Origin: a virus
Taxonomy: Duplodnaviria; Caudoviricetes
Virus record (IMG/VR): IMGVR_UViG_2974592265_000001
Location: 24,404 to 88,403 of that record
Strand: one strand, 5' to 3'
Length of the DNA: 64,000 bases
The notes under the pieces were generated by a model. The model saw nothing but the letters and a program-made list of their open reading frames with translations, was not told the DNA's origin and did no database searches. The position numbers were made by a program, and so were the translations under genes. Of the stretch, positions 3,105 through 63,623 are shown in pieces. Every line of letters begins with the position of its first letter. Within the stretch, counting starts at the first letter, position 1.

Positions 3105-3500
3105 ATGACTACTGATCCAGCTTCGCATACAGGGTGGCTGACGGTCTCTGCAGTCTACGTGTGGGCCATTATCGAACAGCTACACCCTGGCTCAGCGATG
3201 GGTGCCTCCTTCGGCTGCGTGTTCTTCGTCTTACTGCCTGATCCAGTTGTATCCTCTTGGTTACTAAAACTTATCCGAAAAATAGGACTCACAGTTGTGT
3301 CCTGGGGGTTCGGCTACGCCGTGGGGATTGCGTTCTCCAACGGCAGTTCAATGCTCGCTGCACTGATCGGTGCCGCGGTTGCTTCGGGGGTTCTTGGCGC
3401 GCTCAACTTGATGGTCAAGAACGATGGCGACCTGCCGCAATGGATGTCGTCTCTGATTAACGCAATTCTACGGTTGAAGCGAGGCGGCGATGAGCAATGA
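3105..3500 (+). CDS. Holin-like membrane protein
   Basis: Several hydrophobic segments; first gene of the lysis cassette. Confidence 0.65.
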   Translation: MTTDPASHTGWLTVSAVYVWAIIEQLHPGSAMGASFGCVFFVLLPDPVVSSWLLKLIRKIGLTVVSWGFGYAVGIAFSNGSSMLAALIGAAVASGVLGALNLMVKNDGDLPQWMSSLINAILRLKRGGDEQ

Positions 3501-3807
3501 TCCTATGTATGGGGAAGTGCTTCTAAGCATTCGCATAGCGCTGCACATGGTCACGTTCTTTTCAGTGATCTGCTACAGCAGCGAACACCGCACACGTCCG
3601 TTCTCCAGCGTGCTGGCCTTGCTCTTGGCCGGCACATCACTGGCCTTGGCCATGCAGGGGTACACCGGCTTCGCAGCGATCGCAGCGAACTCGGAAATCT
3701 GGCTGGTGCTGTTCGTTGGTGTAGTGACCATCCTTGTTGTCGCCAACGGCGGCAACGTCGCAAAAGTTCTCCACAACACTCGAAAGAGGCTCCCCTATGG
3801 ACGCTAA
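3490..3807 (+). CDS. Second holin/antiholin-like membrane protein
   Basis: Three predicted TM helices and a basic C-terminus; overlaps both neighbours; directly precedes the endolysin. Confidence 0.65.
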   Translation: MSNDPMYGEVLLSIRIALHMVTFFSVICYSSEHRTRPFSSVLALLLAGTSLALAMQGYTGFAAIAANSEIWLVLFVGVVTILVVANGGNVAKVLHNTRKRLPYGR

Positions 3808-4339
3808 GACTCTGGCCGCCGCCACGGGTATTCCGTTGGCGCGCGCACAGAAGTGGGAAGGACCCATCAGCGAAGCCATCACCTACGCCGACATCACGTT
3901 GGCCAGGTCGATCGCCTCGTTCCTCGCCCAGACCGGGCATGAAAGCATGAGCTTCACCCGCACCAAGGAGATGGGTGACGACAAGTACCTCAGCCAGTAC
4001 GACACCGGTAAGAAGGCCGAGCGCCTGGGCAACACGCCGGAGGCCGATGGCGACGGACAGCTGTACGCCGGCCGTGGGCTGATTCAGGTCACTGGCAAGA
4101 GTAACTACCGCCAGTGCAGCCTCGACCTGTTCGGGGATGAGCGCCTGGTGGATCATCCTCAGCTCCTCGAGGAGCCACGCTACGCAGCCCTGTCGGCGGC
4201 GTGGTACTGGAAGAAGAAGAAGCTGAACAGCCTGTCCAACGACATCATGGCGCAGACCCAGCGAATCAACGGCGGCCTGAACGGCATCGAAGATCGCAAG
4301 AAGCGCATGAGCCTGGCGCTCAAAGCGTTGGCTGCATGA
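3797..4339 (+). CDS. Endolysin, glycoside hydrolase family 19 (chitinase-like)
   Basis: FLAQTGHES, YAGRGLIQVTGKSNY, SAAWYW and TQRINGGLNGIEDR motifs. Start placed at ATG 3797 (MDAKTLAAATG). Confidence 0.92.
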   Translation: MDAKTLAAATGIPLARAQKWEGPISEAITYADITLARSIASFLAQTGHESMSFTRTKEMGDDKYLSQYDTGKKAERLGNTPEADGDGQLYAGRGLIQVTGKSNYRQCSLDLFGDERLVDHPQLLEEPRYAALSAAWYWKKKKLNSLSNDIMAQTQRINGGLNGIEDRKKRMSLALKALAA

Positions 4340-4875
4340 TGTTCGACCTACGCGCCGTGATCATCGCTGCCCTGTCCGCTCTGGTGATCGGGGCAGGTGT
4401 CGGCGCGTGGGTCGCTTGGGGCGTTCGCGCGACCCAGGCTGACCTCGACCTGCTTGGGCTGCGCAACACCTATGACACCGCCACCGCCGCGGCCAAGGAT
4501 GAATCCCGCAGCGCGGAGCAGGCCTTGCAGCGGCAGATCGACGACCTGAGCGAGAAGGCCCGCGATGACCGCCACGAGATTGATACTGATGTCGCTGTTG
4601 CTGGCGACACTACTGACGGCCTGCTGCACGCAGCCGCCAACCTACGTTACAGCGCCTCCGCCTGTGATCCCGGCGTTGCCCGCCGAGGCCAGGCAGCCAC
4701 CAAGGCCGCCCTTCTGTACTCCGAGCTGCTTGAAGAAACTCAGCGATTGGCAAAGGGATTGGCAGAAGAAGCTGAGCGAACCCGAGCTGCAGGCGCCACT
4801 TGTGAAGTCGCCTACGACGGGGTGAAGCAAAAATATGGGGAGTTGTGGCATGAAAGGACCGGTAGTGACCGGTAG
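4336..4875 (+). CDS. Rz-like i-spanin
   Basis: N-terminal TM anchor followed by an Ala-rich coiled coil; ATG overlaps the endolysin stop; contains an out-of-frame lipoprotein gene. Confidence 0.85.
   Translation: MMFDLRAVIIAALSALVIGAGVGAWVAWGVRATQADLDLLGLRNTYDTATAAAKDESRSAEQALQRQIDDLSEKARDDRHEIDTDVAVAGDTTDGLLHAAANLRYSASACDPGVARRGQAATKAALLYSELLEETQRLAKGLAEEAERTRAAGATCEVAYDGVKQKYGELWHERTGSDR
4565..4825 (+). CDS. Rz1-like o-spanin lipoprotein, embedded in Rz
   Basis: Signal peptide with lipobox LTA-C and Pro-rich mature part (PPPVIPALP); nested in another frame of Rz. Confidence 0.85.
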   Translation: MTATRLILMSLLLATLLTACCTQPPTYVTAPPPVIPALPAEARQPPRPPFCTPSCLKKLSDWQRDWQKKLSEPELQAPLVKSPTTG

Positions 4876-4883
4876 GTGAAGGG

Positions 4884-4899
4884 TGTTCCACGTGGAACA
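4884..4899. promoter_or_regulatory. parS: parS (ParB-binding centromere) palindrome
   Basis: Perfect 16-bp palindrome TGTTCCACGTGGAACA matching the bacterial chromosomal parS consensus TGTTNCACGTGNAACA; intergenic. Confidence 0.85.
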
Positions 4900-4914
4900 T
4901 TTGCAGAGTTAGAG

Positions 4915-4943
4915 GAGGGCAGCGATCGCTGCCCTCGTTGTTT
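4915..4943 (+). terminator. Intrinsic terminator at the late/replication convergence point
   Basis: GAGGGCAGC-GATC-GCTGCCCTC followed by GTTGTTT, between convergent genes. Confidence 0.65.
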
Positions 4944-5219
4944 CTAGGCGTGGGTCCAGCTGAATTTTCCGATCAAGGTGTCACCCTTGAGCGTCTTGTA
5001 CTCCATCAGCCCTTCGCGATCAGACAGGTGTCGAGTGCGGCAGGCGATGACCACGGTGTCCTTGAGGAAGAACAGCGAGGTGCCCACTTCCGTGGTGCCG
5101 GTGGTGCCGGCTGGCACCTTGATGTACATCCAGGTGGATACCGGCGCCAGACTGCCTGGAGGGTTCCAGTGGGTGGCCTCTTCAACGTGGCCGCAGCAAG
5201 GGCAGCGTTCCGGGGTCAT
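4944..5219 (-). CDS. Hypothetical protein
   Basis: Last ORF of the - strand chain; 4-nt overlap with the upstream gene; N-terminal CPCC. Confidence 0.55.
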   Translation of the reverse strand: MTPERCPCCGHVEEATHWNPPGSLAPVSTWMYIKVPAGTTGTTEVGTSLFFLKDTVVIACRTRHLSDREGLMEYKTLKGDTLIGKFSWTHA

Positions 5220-5914: not shown

Positions 5915-8182
5915 TCACTCCCCCACGTTGACGATGTTTTCCGCCAGCGCCTGGTCGGTCTCGCGGTGGGTGATCAGCAGCACCTGCTTGGCGCTTCCAG
6001 CGATCATCGCCGCCAGACTTGCAGCGTTGTGTTCACGGCAGTCGGCAGTGGGCTCGTCGAAGATCAGCAGGCTGTCCTTGCCGTACAGGGCACGGGCCAG
6101 ACCTACACGCAGCGAGACACCGATCATGGCTTTCTGCGCGCCGGAAGCCGACGCTGTAGGAGCGGAAATGCCTTCTTCCATGTAGTAGAAGTCACCCTCG
6201 TCGTTGCTGATCTGCGTGATCAGGTCCTTCGAAGCGGTGCGCACCAACTTGCTGCCCACACCCATGACGGTGTCCCAGACTTCCTTCAGGTACTGCTGAC
6301 GACGGTCACGCAGGAACTGCACCAGGCGCTGGTACTTCTTGGCCAGGGCAACGTGTTCCACGGCAGCGGTGGCGTTCTTCTGCAGCTGCTCCAGCTTCTC
6401 GTTGGCCGCGTCCAGCAGCGAGGTGGCGTGCTTGACTTCCTGCTTGGCCAGGGTAACCGCCGATTCCAACACCTGCTTGCGTTCCTTCCACTCGCTGTGG
6501 GCGGCCTGGTAGGCGGTCTCAGCGGCTTCAGCAGCTTTGACGTCCGCTTCTGTCGGCGGCTCCGGCAACGCCTCCAGCTCGTCGTTCAGGGCCTGCAGAG
6601 TGGCCTTGGTCTCGTCCACCGTCACGCCGGCAGCTGCCAGCGCAGCGTGCTCGCGGTCGTAGGTGGAGTTGGCTTCGGTGATGCCCTTCAGCTTGGCCTG
6701 CATCTCGGCGTAGCTGGTGCGGGACTCACTCAGCTGTCCTGCCACACCGCTGAGCTCGTCTTCAATGATGCCCAGGGCGCGGGCAGGCTTGACGGCTTCT
6801 TTGGCTGCCTTGTCAGCGTTGATCGCATTGTCCAGCTTGACGATGGACGCCTCGTAGCGTGCCAGGGTGTCGGCGCGACCTTTACGGTCTTCCTTCATCG
6901 CGGCGATGTCGGTCTGCAGCTGCGCCACCGAAGCCTTACGGCCCTCCCAGTAGGTACGGGCTTCCTCCGCTTCAGCTTTCAGCTTCTCAGGGTCGTGGTC
7001 TTCCTTTGCCCGTAGGCAAGTCGGGCACACGGCACCGTCGGACAGCATCAGCAGGTTGTCGTAGCTGCCCTTGGCCTTGCCAACTTCTTCCAGGCGTGCG
7101 GCGAGGTCGTCCTGCGAGGTCTGGATCGTTCGGTCCAGCAGGGCGATCTCAATTTCAGAGTCATCAGGCTCGAAGTCCTTCCAGTTGGCGTTGTGCTCGA
7201 CTTGGCAGGTGTCCAGTGCCAGATCAGCCTCATCGGCGGCCAGCTGCAGACGTTTGGCCACGGCCAGCTCGTCGTTCAGAGCCTTCTCGGTGGCGGCCAG
7301 GGTGGTGCCGGAGGTCTTCATGCCTTCCATGTCGGCGAGGATCGCGGCGCCGTCCTGTTTGACCAGACCCATTGTGCGAGCCGCTGCCTCGTCGGCACGG
7401 CTGTTGGCGTGTTTGACGTTGTTCTCGGCCACGGTGATGCGGTTGGACAGGCTGACCACGACGGCGATCTTCTCGCGCAGGGCGAAGGCTGCAGCAGGTT
7501 TCTCCAGATCGAACTCACCCTGGGACTCGCTGTTGGAAACCGCCGTGGCCAAACCAGACCCTGCCTGCAGGCTGGCGTCGGCGGCTGCCTTGGCCATTTC
7601 ACGGGCTTCTTCCATGGCTTCGTCCGAGACGAGGAGGGCGTCCGCCTTGCCGGTGCTGATGGTGGACTGACGCTGTGCTTCGGCCTGGACCTTGTCGATC
7701 AGATCGACGCCGGCGAACTCTTCAACCTTGCGGTTCAGCGCGGCGGCGCCGAACTCGAGGATGGCGGCCGAGCTGTGCTGCTTGGACTGCACGAACAGGT
7801 CCCAGTCCTTGGCCGACAGGCCCAGCAGGGATTCCATCTCGGCGGTGACCGGGGTGCTGCCATTGGCCACCAGGTCGACGCTGCCGTCAGCGTTGGTGCG
7901 GGTCAGCTTGGCGGTCTTGTCGGTGCGCACGCAGCTGTAGATCTCGTCAGCGTGCAGCTGGAAGGTCAGGGTCACCTTCCAGGTCTTCTGGCCCCACGTC
8001 GGGATGTTTTCCTTCTTGCCCGGTACGACGGTGGGGCCGAACAGGGCCACCTGAATGGCCTGCAGCAGGGTGGACTTGCCTTTGGCGTTGTCCCCGGCCA
8101 CGACGTTCAGGCCCTGGGTGAATTCCGCGGTGAAGCTGCCGAGCTTTTTGAAGTTCTCGGTGACGCAAGTTAACAGACGCAT
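5915..8182 (-). CDS. sbcC: SbcC/Rad50-like SMC-family ATPase
   Basis: Walker A GDNAKGKSTLL, long coiled coils with central zinc hook CPTC, signature SASGAQ, Walker B LLIFDEPT, H-loop LLITH. Confidence 0.92.
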   Translation of the reverse strand: MRLLTCVTENFKKLGSFTAEFTQGLNVVAGDNAKGKSTLLQAIQVALFGPTVVPGKKENIPTWGQKTWKVTLTFQLHADEIYSCVRTDKTAKLTRTNADGSVDLVANGSTPVTAEMESLLGLSAKDWDLFVQSKQHSSAAILEFGAAALNRKVEEFAGVDLIDKVQAEAQRQSTISTGKADALLVSDEAMEEAREMAKAAADASLQAGSGLATAVSNSESQGEFDLEKPAAAFALREKIAVVVSLSNRITVAENNVKHANSRADEAAARTMGLVKQDGAAILADMEGMKTSGTTLAATEKALNDELAVAKRLQLAADEADLALDTCQVEHNANWKDFEPDDSEIEIALLDRTIQTSQDDLAARLEEVGKAKGSYDNLLMLSDGAVCPTCLRAKEDHDPEKLKAEAEEARTYWEGRKASVAQLQTDIAAMKEDRKGRADTLARYEASIVKLDNAINADKAAKEAVKPARALGIIEDELSGVAGQLSESRTSYAEMQAKLKGITEANSTYDREHAALAAAGVTVDETKATLQALNDELEALPEPPTEADVKAAEAAETAYQAAHSEWKERKQVLESAVTLAKQEVKHATSLLDAANEKLEQLQKNATAAVEHVALAKKYQRLVQFLRDRRQQYLKEVWDTVMGVGSKLVRTASKDLITQISNDEGDFYYMEEGISAPTASASGAQKAMIGVSLRVGLARALYGKDSLLIFDEPTADCREHNAASLAAMIAGSAKQVLLITHRETDQALAENIVNVGE

Positions 8183-22191: not shown

Positions 22192-23879
22192 CCGAGCAGT
22201 TCAAAGAGCAGATCGTGCTTGTCTTTGATCGCCCGGTTATTGCTTTCTTCATTGGCCAACAGCGCCTTGAAGTTCTTGTCGGACAGCGTGCCTCGCACTC
22301 TCATGAAGTACACGTTGACCACGTTGACCTGGCCGTTTCGGTCAGCACGGGCAATCGCTTGCTTGGCCGCCTTGGGCGAGGTCGGACACTCATAGAAGAT
22401 GATGTAGCTGGCCACCTGCAGGTTCAGCCCGGCGCCGCCGGACACCCACTGGATCACGATGACCTCGCACTCGTCATCCTTCTGGAACTTCTCCACCTGG
22501 GCCTGGCGGTCAGCGATGCCGCCGTAGACCACCGCCACCTTGCGGTGAGCGAATTGCATGGCCAGCTGCTCGATGGCTTGGCGGTAGAAGGCGAAGATGA
22601 TCAGCTTGCGTTTCGGCCCGGGGTTGATCGAGTCCACCAGCTGCCCGGTGGCCTTGGACAACTCGTCACACTCGGTGAGGGTGGGGTCGAACTTGGTCGG
22701 GCAGCTGATCAGCTGCAGGGCCATGTGCCGTAGGGCGCTGGCGTTGTCCGGTGCCAGCACCAGGTCGCCGAGAACCGCGAAGCGATCCTTTATTACCTGC
22801 CGGTACAGCTTCAGGTGGCGTCCGGACAGCTTGACCGGCACCTCACTGATCACCGGCTCCGGCATCGGGATCACGTCGCGCTTCTGCACCCGCCTGGCGT
22901 TCTTCCACAGCGAGTCGTAGATCTTCTCCGTGTCGAAGTAGCCGACGATCTGCTTGATCTTCTTCGACTTGCCGTTGGGCAGCGGGATCTCGAACTCCTC
23001 GTGCTCACAGTGCTGCCGCAGGAACGAGGCCTTGTTCAGGTAGGCTTCCGGGTTGATCAGGCGGATCAGGCCGTAGGCGTTGTGCAGCTTGGTCGGGATC
23101 GGCGTGCCGGTCATCACGTAGATGGCCACGTCGTCCTTCAGCCGCATGCTCATCTCGGCCACCGACTCGGACAGGATCGACTCCAGCCCGCACAGTGCAT
23201 CGCCTTCGTCGAAGAACAACACGTTGTAGCCGTGTTCCTTGAGCAGCATCTGCTTGGGGTTCTTGGCGGTGCCGTTCTTCACGTTAATCTGCCGACCGTC
23301 CCGGGTGTACGGCTGCGCCTTGGGGAAGCGGGGGTCGCCCTTGTTGTCCCCTTCCTCAATGAAGTAGCTGGTAGCGAACTCTAAATTCGTACCTAACTCA
23401 TTGATATTCCTGATTTTCCAGTGATTATTCCCGATTTTCTTGCGGGGGTTTTTGTCGTTGTACAGGCGGTAGATGTCGTAGGACAGTACCAGAATGTCCG
23501 GCCAGCCCTCGACGTTCCAGACCTGTTCCTTTTTGCGCTTCTGCGTGGCGGTGCAGTCCATGTGTTCGATCTTGAGCTTCTGCCCGATACCGGGGAAGAA
23601 GATCTCGAACTCCTCCATGAACTGAGGGATCAGGCCAGGCAGTGTGGTGAACACCACCTTGTTGCCCATGGCAGCCATCATGATGGCGTGGACCTGGGCC
23701 GGGTACGTCTTGCCTGTACCGGGCTCAGAAAAATCCCCGTAACGGTCGTTCCAGGGATACACCTTGATCGTGTCGAGTTGATGCGGCATCGGCCAGTTCG
23801 GCAGAGGGATCTCTGAGAACCAGTCGGGGTGGTTGCCCACCCCTACCGTGAGCATCAAGTCGTGAAGACTTACACCCAT
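22188..23879 (-). CDS. SF2 (SNF2-like) helicase
   Basis: SEPGTGKT, FFDEGD, MTGTP, SGGAGLNLQ and QAIARADRNGQ. Confidence 0.88.
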   Translation of the reverse strand: MGVSLHDLMLTVGVGNHPDWFSEIPLPNWPMPHQLDTIKVYPWNDRYGDFSEPGTGKTYPAQVHAIMMAAMGNKVVFTTLPGLIPQFMEEFEIFFPGIGQKLKIEHMDCTATQKRKKEQVWNVEGWPDILVLSYDIYRLYNDKNPRKKIGNNHWKIRNINELGTNLEFATSYFIEEGDNKGDPRFPKAQPYTRDGRQINVKNGTAKNPKQMLLKEHGYNVLFFDEGDALCGLESILSESVAEMSMRLKDDVAIYVMTGTPIPTKLHNAYGLIRLINPEAYLNKASFLRQHCEHEEFEIPLPNGKSKKIKQIVGYFDTEKIYDSLWKNARRVQKRDVIPMPEPVISEVPVKLSGRHLKLYRQVIKDRFAVLGDLVLAPDNASALRHMALQLISCPTKFDPTLTECDELSKATGQLVDSINPGPKRKLIIFAFYRQAIEQLAMQFAHRKVAVVYGGIADRQAQVEKFQKDDECEVIVIQWVSGGAGLNLQVASYIIFYECPTSPKAAKQAIARADRNGQVNVVNVYFMRVRGTLSDKNFKALLANEESNNRAIKDKHDLLFELLG

Positions 23880-44763: not shown

Positions 44764-47700
44764 CTACCGGCGCAGGATGTGGATTTTGCCGTCGATGGTT
44801 TCCTGCATCACCTCGCCGTCGTAGAGCACCGGGATGGCCTTGGAGGGGCCACGTCGATGGCCTCGGCAATCTGAGACGGAGCTGACTTCGACGTGGTCAA
44901 TGGCCCGTTGCACCTCGACGCCTTCGATGACCACGAGCATGACCCGCGGTGCATCGTCCTCGTCGCAGGAGAACGGCACGTCGCCCATGGTGATGTAGGC
45001 CTTGGGCTCCCCTTCGCTGTTGTAGCGGCCGAGGAGGGCTTCGTCGGTGTTGTCCCCGTCCTTGAGCATCTGCCCGTCGCTGTCGGTCAGCAGCAGGTAG
45101 TCACCACTCGGCAGGTCCTTGCGCAACGCTCGGCAGCCGCCTCCAGTGTCGACCTCGACGAACCCGTAGTCGCGCGGGTCGGCGCTGAAGCGGGCACAGT
45201 CGGAGATGAACGGATGGCGGATCTCCATGCCGTCGTGCTCGAAGGCCAGCAGCCTGGCGTCGTAGGGGATGTTGAGGGTGGTGCCGCTGGGCAGGTAGAA
45301 CGTCATGGGGTTTTTCGATTTGTCAGTCATCGACCCTCCTGCGCATTGCGCTGGGCAACATAGTCAACGGCCTGTCGGAACAGGCCAACGAAATGGTCTT
45401 GCCACCGATGGGGCACCGCTGGGAGGACATTCACCACCCAGCGGCCTTTCTCGATGCGTATTTGGGGGCGGAAGCACGGCGGTATGCCTTCACCTCTCCA
45501 CCAAGCACACTTATCCCACTTGCGCAGGTCGTCTTCATCGGCCAAGCGTTGAATCCGCTCGATGCCGATGTAGGTAGTGCCGCCCATGCACTGGTCGCCG
45601 TGCCAGCCTCCTGCGTGAGGTTCATGCAGCTTGGCCAGCGCTGTGCTGCCATCCCCGTAGCGGACGATGTCTCCGGACATGTACTGATTAGCCATCGCCC
45701 ACCTCCTCCTCCAGCACCGCTTCGGTGGCTTCCACGTCCTTGATCTCGGTGTCCGGCTCGATGTGCCAGTCAGATGGATCGGAGGGGGAGCCGGCCGTGG
45801 CAAATGCCTTGGCCTGCTCCTCGTTTTCGGCCGTCACCGTGACTTGACGAAACATCACGGCGTTGGCCAGCAGGGTTACGTAATAGTCGGGCATACCGCC
45901 TCCTACGACTTGAACTCGGTGATGCCCAGGCCGTTCAGCGCGAAGACCACCAGCGCCACGATCAGGGCAATTTTCAGGATGGGTTTCACGCCGCCTCCTG
46001 ATTCTTGATGGCCGCTTCGATCTTTTCGATCAGCGCCGGGTGGGCAAAGAAGGTGTCCTGAAAGCGAATGATCTGATCGCTGGGCACCTGGGTGGTGACG
46101 TAGCGGACCTTCTTCAGCGGCTGCCATGGCAGGCTGAACAGGCGCTCCTTCCATGACCGGGGCACTTCCTCGGTCTTGGAATCGGTCATGGAAGGGGTGG
46201 CGATGATACGCACCCCGTTGAGCAGCTTGTGGGTTTGTTCTGCCATCATTCCTCTCTTAGCGCCCTGAGCGCTTCCTTCAGGTCGGCGACCAGCTGATCA
46301 GCCTCCGACGGGTGAATGCCCAGGGTGCCGCCGGTCTTGAACCGGATGATCACGCACGGGTCATTGATGTAGTTGGCGGTGACCACGACCCGCCGAGGCG
46401 TTTCGGTGTCACCGTGGATGGTCAACGTGCGGCCTTTCAGTTTGCACATGTCACACCTCTGTTTGGACTTTCTCCGGGCAGTCGTCATGGTGATGGGCTT
46501 GTCCGCACCAGACGCACTCCAGTTGGTTGTCGTCAATGTCGCGCACCGGCATGCCGTGGGCACACAGCAGTTCGGCGATGCCTTGTGCGGTGTCCGAATC
46601 CCACTCAGCCTTGTCCAGCTCCTTGTGTACCTCGGTCAGGCACTCCAGCAGTTCGGCGATGCGCTGCCACTGCTGGCGGTTGGGCATCGGCCCACCTTTG
46701 GCGACGCTGTCTGCCAGCTGCGCCAGGTAGGACGGGGAGAGCAGGATGGCCTCCGGCTCTTCCTTGGTGTCGTAGAGCTTGTGCACGTCGCTGAACGACG
46801 TGGATGTCTCGACCACCTTCTGGGTCGAGTCGTTGATGTAGAACTTCATGTGCCCTCCTCAGAGCGTCATCATTCCGCTGGCCATCCAACCCCAGCCCAC
46901 CGACACCATGATCAGCGAGCCGGTGCCGAGGACCACTATCAGTAGCGCACAGGCTACGTCCAACCAATGCTTCACGGGCCGATCTCCGGGTTGGGGTAGG
47001 AGAACACCAGGCACTCGATCACATAGGCCGAGTTGGTTGGCGGTGCCCACTGGCGATCGCCGTGGAACAGCTGCCAACCCTGCATCACGGCCTTGAGGGT
47101 CAGGGTGTCGCCGTTGTTCATCTGGATCTCGACGCCGTCGGCGATGTGGCCGCGCATCGAGTGGAACTCGTCCTGCTTAACTTTCGTTGTCATCGGGAAC
47201 CTCCGGGATTTCGTAGGTCTCCACCGGGAACGGCTGCTTGAGCAGGTGTCTCAGGTAGAACGCACCTTTCGCCGTGGTGGTGTAGACGTTGTTGTCGAGC
47301 CTGATCATGCCCGCAGTCACCAGACGGGAAGTCCCTTTGATGATCGCAGGGGCGTCAGCTCGGGGGTGGACATCCGGGCTGACGTGACAGTGGATCAGCA
47401 ACTCAAGGTCGTTAGGGGTTTGGATACAGGGCATTACACGTCACCTCCACAGCGGTGGAACAGTTGATGCCGCCACTTGAACATCCAGCTGCGGCCTTTG
47501 AGTTTGGTCATCACCTTGATGGTCGGGTAGGTGACGAAGAGGAACAGGGCGAGGACCGCCCAGTGCCTCATGCCCTCACTCCTTCAATTGTGTAGCCAAG
47601 GGAGGAGGCTGTCTCCAGCGCCTCCTTCTTGGTCCTACACCACGGCTGGACAAGGTCACATCCGTCGCGGTCCACAATCCTCCACGCGGTGGCGAACCAA

Positions 47701-48555
47701 GCGCGCTTGGTGGTGAACCGCTCCTGACTGTCTTTCTTCAGGAACGCTGGCTTGGTGGTCACACATCACCTCCCAGCAATTTCATCAGGGACGGGCTGCT
47801 CTTGACCAGCGGCGAATACTCCAGCTCCAGACGATTCCTCGGCCGGACATGGAGGACGCCGATCTGGAAGCCCAGCTCGGTGCTGGCGAACTCCACCACG
47901 TCGCCTTCCTCGCCGGTCTGCAGGGTCAGCTGCACGGCGCGGGGCATGGCGGTGTCCATCCAGCTGTAGTACCGGGTCCAGACCTTGTCCTTCTTGCGGC
48001 CCCGGTAGAGGGTGGCGGAAATACCTCGGCTCATGGCGCCTCCTCGAACTCGGCGCCGTAGCCTTTCAGGTAGACCTTGGCCTCAGACAGCGAGGCGAAG
48101 TGGCGGCCGGCGGTGCCGTTGCGGTAGGTCACCCATGGCAGCGTCTCGGACCAGTCCGGGTGGTAGGTGGTGCGATAGCGTTGGCACTTGCTGCGCACCG
48201 TCTCACCGAGCTTGCGCCCACCTTCGGTCAAGGCCCGTTCGATCCACACCACCAGCAGGGCATAAGCGATGCACTCGCTGGGGAACTTGTTGGTGGCGAA
48301 GGACTTGATCGACTCGTCCCCCTCGTCCTTGAAGGCACGCACCACCAGGCGGGTGAAGGCGTAATGCACGCCGTGGCTGATGAAGCGGGGATCACCCGGC
48401 TTCTCGATGCGCATGGCAAAGCTGTCATGCGCATCCTTCCAGCTGTTCAACGTCGCGTCGGCGATGTCGAAGCAATTGTTCAACATGAATGTGTCGCACT
48501 GGCCCGGCCAGTGGCCGTGCCGGCAGTCCAGTTCACGCAGTTGTTGTAGGTACAT
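44764..48555 (-). other. Chain of small hypothetical early ORFs (44764-45330, 45327-45695, 45688-45894, 45986-46249, 46246-46449, 46451-46849, 46972-47193, 47177-47434, 47568-47762, 47759-48034, 48031-48555)
   Basis: Co-oriented, coupled, with GGAGG RBSs; no family recognised. Confidence 0.6.
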
Positions 48556-61783: not shown

Positions 61784-62198
61784 CTCTGCCGCAATAGCCA
61801 AGGAACGCCTGCAACACCACGTGACCGGCGTCGACGAGAAGTTCTACATCAGCCAGGCCACGATCAGCGAAGGCACCATCACCGACGAAATAACCGACGA
61901 GGAGAAACTGATCCGGGCCGGAGTTCTACGCGCTGCCCTCATCGAGCCGGAGTCCTTTCGCCTGCCGGACCACCGGATCGCCCAGACCGGCGCCGAGGAC
62001 CTGGCCCGCTTCCTCGCGGTGACGATCCGCAAGGTTGAGGAGCTGGAGTCGACGTACCAGGAGCTGTTGATGCAGGCGCACCAGTACCGCGACATCGACA
62101 CCCGCCACCTGCAGATCGCGCGCAACCACCTGGACATCGGCCAGACCTTCCTCCTCAAGGCGCTGCGCAACGTGGAAATCCTTGATGACGGCAAGTGA
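61767..62198 (+). CDS. Helical hypothetical protein; C-terminus weakly resembles the Acb2-type fold
   Basis: GGAGG RBS; C-terminal RHLQIARNHLDIGQTFLLKAL. Confidence 0.6.
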   Translation: MSQPTDSAAIAKERLQHHVTGVDEKFYISQATISEGTITDEITDEEKLIRAGVLRAALIEPESFRLPDHRIAQTGAEDLARFLAVTIRKVEELESTYQELLMQAHQYRDIDTRHLQIARNHLDIGQTFLLKALRNVEILDDGK

Positions 62199-62323: not shown

Positions 62324-62397
62324 AGAGGGTTCGCCAAGTGGTAAGGCCCGGGGTTTTGATCCCTGTACCGGTGGTTCGAATCCATCACCCTCTACCA
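62324..62397 (+). tRNA. tRNA-Gln (anticodon UUG)
   Basis: Acceptor stem AGAGGGT/ACCCTCT, D-arm GCC-AAGTGGTAA-GGC, anticodon arm CGGGG-TTTTGAT-CCCTG, T-loop TTCGAAT, encoded CCA. Confidence 0.96.
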
Positions 62398-63015: not shown

Positions 63016-63623
63016 TGGCTACGCGGATCAAGGGCATCACGGAAGGTCTCGACGACCCGGGCTGGGACATGGTCAAGCTGGAACCCTCGACGGCGGAGCA
63101 CCCGGCCAAGTACAAGCCGATGGCCAACCCGCCGCCAGTGACCAACCTGGCCTCGCTGAAGTACGCCGATCGCCAGCTGTTCGACGCCATCGAGCTGCTG
63201 ATGACCAACCTCAAGCTCGACATGCTGCCGGACGGCATCCAGGCCGACATCGTCGCGGTGATGTCGGCCACGACCAAGCGCCAGTTGGTGCAGCAGATGG
63301 CGGGTCTGGATGCCTCGGTGCTGGTGACGTTCAAGCAGCAGCTTGCCTTGATCGAGGCGGTGACCAGCCGCGTGGTAAGCCCTGAAGGGCTACCGCTGCA
63401 AGGCCATGGGTTGGACATCAGCGTCAAGGATGCTATGAATATGTCGATGAAAGTGATCGGCATGCTGGTCAAGGACATGCCCAAGGTGATCACCTTGGCA
63501 CGGGTTCAGCGGTTGGAGAACAGCCTGCTGAAGGTGGTGGAGACGCTGCCGAAAAAGGCTCAGGACGACGTGCTGCGTCTGCTTGAGGAAGAGGAAATGA
63601 AAGCCGCGAGGGAAGCGAAATGA
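63015..63623 (+). CDS. Hypothetical helical protein, possibly small terminase
   Basis: Position at the start of a rightward gene block and helical composition; no diagnostic motif. Confidence 0.4.
   Translation: MATRIKGITEGLDDPGWDMVKLEPSTAEHPAKYKPMANPPPVTNLASLKYADRQLFDAIELLMTNLKLDMLPDGIQADIVAVMSATTKRQLVQQMAGLDASVLVTFKQQLALIEAVTSRVVSPEGLPLQGHGLDISVKDAMNMSMKVIGMLVKDMPKVITLARVQRLENSLLKVVETLPKKAQDDVLRLLEEEEMKAAREAK

Follow-up and report, generated by a model that had tools for sequence, protein, structure and literature searches.

The stretch of DNA analysed here, referred to as the window, comprises 64,000 nucleotides and corresponds to bases 24,404-88,403 of an 88,403-bp virus record for which CheckV gives a completeness of 100%. 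The locus under study lies between a late/lysis unit, read on the plus strand, and a replication/repair block that converges on it from the minus strand. Its features are the following, in window coordinates.

3105-3500 and 3490-3807, plus strand: two holin-like genes (PHROG 198 and PHROG 217 holins; weak Pfam match to Phage_holin_3_7).
3797-4339, plus strand: GH19-type endolysin (PHROG 181, E 8e-59; PF00182), its start being placed from 180-aa homologues in relatives.
4336-4875, plus strand: Rz-like spanin (DUF2514), last gene of the late/lysis unit (PHROG 312, PF10721; 179-aa homologues).
4880-4910, no strand: insertion of ~31 bp that bears parS, delimited by alignments and junction read-outs, with ends uncertain by ~2 nt.
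4884-4899, no strand: predicted perfect Pseudomonas-type parS, TGTTCCACGTGGAACA, a presumed loading site for host ParB (16/16 identity).
4915-4946, plus strand: intrinsic terminator called by a terminator scan, with a GC-rich hairpin GAGGGCAGCGATCGCTGCCCTC (4915-4936) and a T-rich tail.
4944-5219, minus strand: 91-aa gene, last of the convergent replication/repair block (no family match).
5915-8182, minus strand: SbcC/Rad50-like DNA repair ATPase of 755 aa (PHROG 28217, E 1.6e-217; PF13476, PF02463).

The gap between the two units measures 68 bp and is bounded by the end of the spanin gene (4875) and the stop codon with which the convergent 91-aa gene ends (4944). The palindrome starts 8 nt past the TAG stop of the spanin gene, and 15 nt separate its end from the terminator hairpin. 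On the other side, the minus-strand block that begins at 4944 includes three small genes and the SbcC/Rad50-like ATPase. A sequence-only reading of the window had placed an exact palindrome in a 68-bp gap flanked by a lysis cassette and a convergent replication block; the palindrome is present there, and the setting had been described correctly.

The same reading had assigned the palindrome to the chromosomal parS consensus, and the assignment holds. The likeness is with the chromosomal sites of Pseudomonas (P. aeruginosa parS1-4; P. putida), the 16 bp matching P. aeruginosa parS2/parS3 and P. putida parS at every base (PMC4368675, PMC7022226); these host sequences are taken from the literature on these two species and not from the phage's own host. 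Unlike the chromosomal sites, the phage site is far from any oriC or parAB operon, and ParB must here be supplied by the host. No second copy exists in the 88,403-bp record, even with two mismatches tolerated, and half-parS motifs are not clearly enriched genome-wide (GTTCCAC, 19 occurrences versus 14-17 expected; GTTTCAC, 7 versus 8-11).

From base composition, ~1.4e-5 exact copies of TGTTCCACGTGGAACA are expected in the genome. The earlier statement that a chance 16-mer is improbable is thus upheld, with the caution that palindromes as a class are not rare here, since eight perfect palindromes of at least 16 bp were counted in the 88-kb genome for ~1 expected. In such a genome, what is rare is the particular palindrome and not palindromy in itself. 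The other palindromes lie at window positions 4918-4933, 22701-22716, 47696-47711 and 63482-63497, with three more upstream of the window; the longest perfect one (20 bp) is the terminator adjoining parS.

The closest named relatives are the Pseudomonas phages PMBT3 and UAntarctica. PMBT3 shares 75% nucleotide identity with this phage over the lysis genes and 58% amino acid identity in the ATPase, and UAntarctica shares 48% identity in the ATPase. PMBT3 is a virulent siphovirus of the P. fluorescens group, without lysogeny genes (PMC8421299). Since both phages infect Pseudomonas, the host of the uncultured phage, whose genome has a G+C content of 60.8%, is probably a Pseudomonas as well. Six-frame searches of all 88 kb returned nothing at E<=1 for ParB (ParB_N PF02195, parB TIGR00180), for ParA (the ParA-type profiles PF13614 and PF01656) and for tyrosine integrase (PF00589), while the control genomes in these profile searches did match. 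The lack of parA and parB, first noticed over 64 kb, therefore holds for the entire 88,403-bp genome, and a phage-encoded ParB or ParA elsewhere in it is ruled out. In this respect, the phage departs from P1 (parABS) and N15 (sopABC), which likewise have a centromere on the phage genome and are partitioned as episomes. These phages are temperate and possess their own ParA/ParB and their own centromere, whereas the present phage has neither gene and carries the site of the host.

To compare junctions, relatives were retrieved by protein searches in a large assembly collection (Logan/ENA/JGI) with the SbcC/Rad50-like ATPase as marker, and the spanin–terminator junction was read in each. Four forms were found (numbers preceded by L designate loci).

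Spanin stop leading directly into the terminator: L136, L138, L160.
Five-gene module in between: PMBT3, L137, L159.
One parS: the window, L130/131, L132-135, L153-155, L158.
Two parS exactly 25 bp apart: L156, L157.

The terminator is kept in relatives with and without parS, PMBT3 included, and homologues of the 91-aa gene likewise occur in both groups. Comparison of L136, L138 and L160, where parS is missing, with the loci where it is present indicates that the site of the window sits in an insertion of ~31 bp. With respect to conservation in relatives, which the sequence-only reading had made a test of its proposal, the outcome is divided: parS occupies the same position in several diverged relatives, but it is absent from PMBT3, UAntarctica and several metagenomic relatives. 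At the level of loci, those without parS are PMBT3, UAntarctica, L136, L137, L138, L159 and L160. Thus, parS is an accessory insertion and is not universal in the PMBT3-like group, and its absence from many relatives means that it is dispensable for the lytic cycle. The relatives recovered by a metagenome scan, which reach 40% identity only, are without parS, and no close relative was found in IMG/VR with the spanin, exonuclease and terminator sequences as queries.

The copies are perfect in the window (one) and in L157 (both), and every other copy has a single change, located in the central CG. In L156, one copy (with CACATG) is the reverse complement of the other (with CATGTG) (2039-2079); this locus has the same 25-bp start-to-start spacing as L157 (1012-1052) with a different spacer sequence. 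In a tree of the lysis cassette, most parS-bearing genomes form one clade (support 0.957), with L158 outside, and the cassettes of the parS-bearing lineages are only 80-86% identical. L135 and L132 are nearly identical in lysis cassette and parS junction, and their SbcC-like genes are far apart in the tree. The different placement of L135 in the ATPase tree indicates that the junction moved between genomes by recombination; a clear mosaic breakpoint is seen near the junction in this pair. More generally, the junction after the spanin gene is a hot spot of plasticity (window 4876-4914; L002:7822-11169, which holds PMBT3 gp029-gp033; L137:9294-11510; L159 from 2095 onward). The end of PMBT3 gp033 (AAGGGTGTCCACG) faintly resembles the left edge of the insertion; this resemblance is absent in L137 and was not retained.

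An exact host-type parS, kept in relatives and accompanied by no partition genes, argues that the phage most likely borrows the ParB of its host. In P. aeruginosa, sites of the parS2/parS3 type have the highest affinity for ParB, one such parS suffices for the formation of a ParB complex, and one site together with parAB stabilises an unstable plasmid (PMC4368675, PMC7022226). Host ParAB is assumed to be present because Pseudomonas species carry these proteins (PMC4368675, PMC7022226), the genus of the host being deduced from the relatives of the phage. Once the phage DNA has entered the cell, host ParB-CTP clamps would load at parS and spread over nearby phage DNA, and this spreading would couple the phage genome to host ParA/ParB and possibly to SMC.

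To our knowledge, borrowing of host ParB by a phage has been proven experimentally only for the Bacillus phage phi29. This virulent phage has five host-type parS, and host Spo0J helps its genome into the prespore, according to the summary of Meijer et al. 2005 given in PMC2731898. Within the limits of that summary, phi29, Nf and the present phage share a lytic character, the lack of their own ParA/ParB and the presence of sites for the host chromosomal ParB (Spo0J in Bacillus). The likeness extends here to the absence of an integrase and to a virulent relative, PMBT3; it stops at the presence of several sites and at spore entrapment, as the 88 kb contain one site. Indeed, phi29, a podovirus with a 19-kb genome and protein-primed replication, infects a spore-former and carries five sites, whereas the present phage is an 88-kb siphovirus with one site (0-2 in relatives). 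In the summarised account, the sites of phi29 serve to trap the genome in the prespore, with the participation of Spo0A boxes, whereas the site considered here is at a convergent terminator junction; likewise, phi29 has its genome segregated by the host machinery, a use that is here proposed from sequence. Pseudomonas does not sporulate, and therefore the benefit must differ from that of phi29, although the mechanism may be similar. By analogy with phi29, the favoured benefit would be positioning or inheritance of the genome when lytic growth stalls, as in a carrier state or pseudolysogeny, or in slow-growing cells. A further parallel is SGI1, which hijacks the parABS of IncC plasmids and is thus a mobile element whose parS-type site exploits the partition proteins of another replicon, as excerpted from PMC10954446. 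In that excerpt, SGI1 is an integrative mobilisable element that relies on the system of a helper plasmid, whereas a virulent phage and a chromosomal system are concerned here.

Binding of ParB could also be turned against the host. Replicating phage copies would then titrate ParB, which is a global regulator and the SMC loader in Pseudomonas, or a coat of ParB would mask or mark phage DNA against host defence. Phage copy number is high late in infection, which would favour titration, and all that supports ParB binding supports this use equally. Growth, gene silencing and plasmid maintenance in P. aeruginosa all respond to ParB dosage and to parS copies (PMC4368675). However, with one or two sites per genome little ParB would be sequestered early in infection, disturbing segregation in a cell due to lyse would bring a virulent phage little advantage, no defence system blocked by ParB is documented here, and the precedent of phi29 favours segregation. 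The same evidence fits segregation and anti-host use, and the latter is possible, but on these arguments we regard it as unlikely.

What speaks for a protein site at all is the way in which the palindrome varies. When the eight parS copies from the six junction types are compared, every substitution falls in the central CG (CACGTG to CATGTG or CACATG) and each of the 14 outer bases is the same throughout, while the flanks, the spacer of the tandem copies and even the terminator stem differ among these junctions. No compensatory stem change is present in the eight copies. With flanks that diverge to this extent, the selection appears to be purifying and to act on the parS sequence rather than on base pairing. 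In a comparison of the window with L130 and L132, one of the 16 parS positions varies, versus 25% of the flanking coding positions and 33-43% of third codon positions. The corresponding probabilities (P ~0.06 versus all coding positions and, by a hand-calculated binomial, ~0.005 versus third positions) represent few independent lineages and a junction that recombines between genomes.

An RNA or DNA hairpin is the obvious competitor for such a palindrome. The palindrome would contribute a second stem-loop to a compound terminator or stabilise the 3′ end of the late (lysis) transcript, and its identity with parS would be a coincidence. This idea draws on several features: the 9-bp stem closely precedes the terminator hairpin, a z of -4.6 is obtained for the fold with both hairpins, the sole substitution of the relatives is confined to the loop of 4 nt, G-to-A changes in the flanks preserve pairing (G-U/A-U), and the genome is rich in perfect 16-bp palindromes, with eight of them. 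However, pairing does not demand this exact sequence and does not explain why the outer bases are fixed while the flanks and the true terminator vary with no compensation in the stem. Moreover, a constant spacing of 25 bp between tandem copies is a usual trait of protein sites. Each arm of parS has only two G-C pairs, the sequence after it reads TTTGCAG, and the terminator scan calls the 4915-4936 hairpin and not parS; no Rfam family matches in the gap. The pattern is better explained by a site for a sequence-specific protein than by an RNA hairpin, and the hairpin alone seems quite improbable as an explanation.

Phages at large were then considered through the IMG/VR collection, in which parS and its core variant were compared with controls. 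The control palindromes have the base composition of parS, and intergenic status relies on crude gene calls.

Perfect parS: at least 120 contigs, 43% intergenic.
CATGTG-core variant TGTTCCATGTGGAACA: at least 120 contigs (loci L161-L279), 58% intergenic.
Control with a mismatch at specificity position 2: 25 contigs, 4% intergenic.
Control with the palindrome reversed: 3 contigs, 13% intergenic (palindrome controls pooled).
Control with the halves of the palindrome swapped: 12 contigs, 13% intergenic (palindrome controls pooled).

The non-coding share of the IMG/VR loci is 8-14% overall. Among the matches listed, the 120 perfect-site loci fall into 92 flank clusters with 23-71% G+C, and none of these 120 parS-bearing loci is related to the present phage. 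ParB_N was found in two of the 50 carrier records examined and in none of the seven complete ones. The excess, the intergenic bias and the rarity of ParB_N together indicate that orphan host-type parS is recurrent and non-random in phage genomes, and the variant with the CATGTG core apparently recurs among phages as a distinct element. Some matches by chance are to be expected when many windows are scanned; judged by these collection-wide controls, the probability of a chance origin of the parS match is roughly 10% or less. Only parS and its core variant show this excess and this intergenic bias, which a hairpin would not explain.

The site could still be a neutral passenger, in other words a parS-containing scrap deposited at a recombination hot spot, not yet lost and functionless for the phage. 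The contents of the junction, which according to the relative are nothing, parS or the five-gene module, and the dispensability of parS in many relatives agree with such a history. Against it, parS is kept across lineages with diverged lysis cassettes and changes only in its central CG, it persists despite the genome-wide purging of CACGTG, and a passenger would not produce the excess and the intergenic bias seen in IMG/VR. No host flank accompanies the site either. Its 24-nt context is found only in two unrelated MAGs (Clostridia and Deltaproteobacteria), a number close to that expected for natural parS with flanks that arose by chance, and the idea of a captured host chromosomal fragment with its flanks was dropped. 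A passenger origin is accordingly given little credence. Rather, the site is real and non-random, and most likely selection maintains it as a functional place for host ParB to load.

The variation of the central CG has a parallel in the rest of the genome. CACGTG occurs only twice for 26-43 occurrences expected, one being the parS core and the other (window 61819-61824) being unlike parS. Other avoided 6-bp palindromes, with observed and expected numbers, are ATCGAT (0/24), GGGCCC (0/20), GGTACC (1/26), CGTACG (1/21) and AAGCTT (1/19). This hexamer avoidance looks like an anti-restriction signature, and CACGTG is probably a restriction target. TGCGCA, TGTACA and TGGCCA are over-represented in the whole genome. 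The loci of the relatives are devoid of CACGTG, with the exception of one site in L137 and of the two perfect copies of L157, and the change in the CG core of relatives removes the purged hexamer and leaves the rest of parS intact.

The CACGTG core, when intact, contributes to the affinity for ParB in P. aeruginosa (PMC4368675), so that the mismatched sites of most relatives may bind weakly. The core variant TGTTCCATGTGGAACA is not one of the ten P. aeruginosa sites, and parS10, which has the core mismatch of the relatives and a second one, is still bound by ParB (PMC4368675). The CATGTG alleles may therefore be weaker but working ParB sites, and the perfect allele of the window would have bought full affinity at the cost of a CACGTG site. 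The varying core is thus probably a trade-off between full ParB affinity and the avoidance of CACGTG.

These observations can be assembled into a broader but tentative proposal, which we put forward as one possibility and by no means as the expected outcome. Orphan parS may constitute a small mobile 'persistence module' of virulent phages, present in one or two copies in the terminator junction and riding on host ParABS, through which the genome of a phage devoid of lysogeny genes would be inherited in stalled infections (carrier state); with the CATGTG core, a phage-specific compromise would retain ParB loading and remove the CACGTG restriction target. The principle is not new, as it is that of phi29. 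What is new is a polymorphic accessory insertion at a terminator junction, with an allelic series of zero, one or two copies and a core apparently shaped by restriction avoidance.

We know of no inheritance mechanism for virulent phages that persist in their hosts. Such phages are increasingly seen to persist in bacterial isolates without integration (PMC12768965). If the proposal is true, a borrowed host centromere would be a minimal inheritance mechanism, of 16 bp and zero genes, and a persistence module of this kind would explain lytic phages in clonal bacterial isolates. The excess and the intergenic bias of both forms in IMG/VR suggest that the phenomenon is widespread and shaped by restriction avoidance. 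Nature offers at a single junction a series of alleles with zero, one or two copies and with a perfect or CATGTG core; together with PMBT3, which lacks parS and is cultivable on hosts of the P. fluorescens group, this series makes the idea directly testable.

As a minor observation on gene content, the window has a tRNA-Gln gene (anticodon TTG) at 62324-62397; PMBT3 reportedly has tRNA-Pro, tRNA-Gln and tRNA-Met (PMC8421299).
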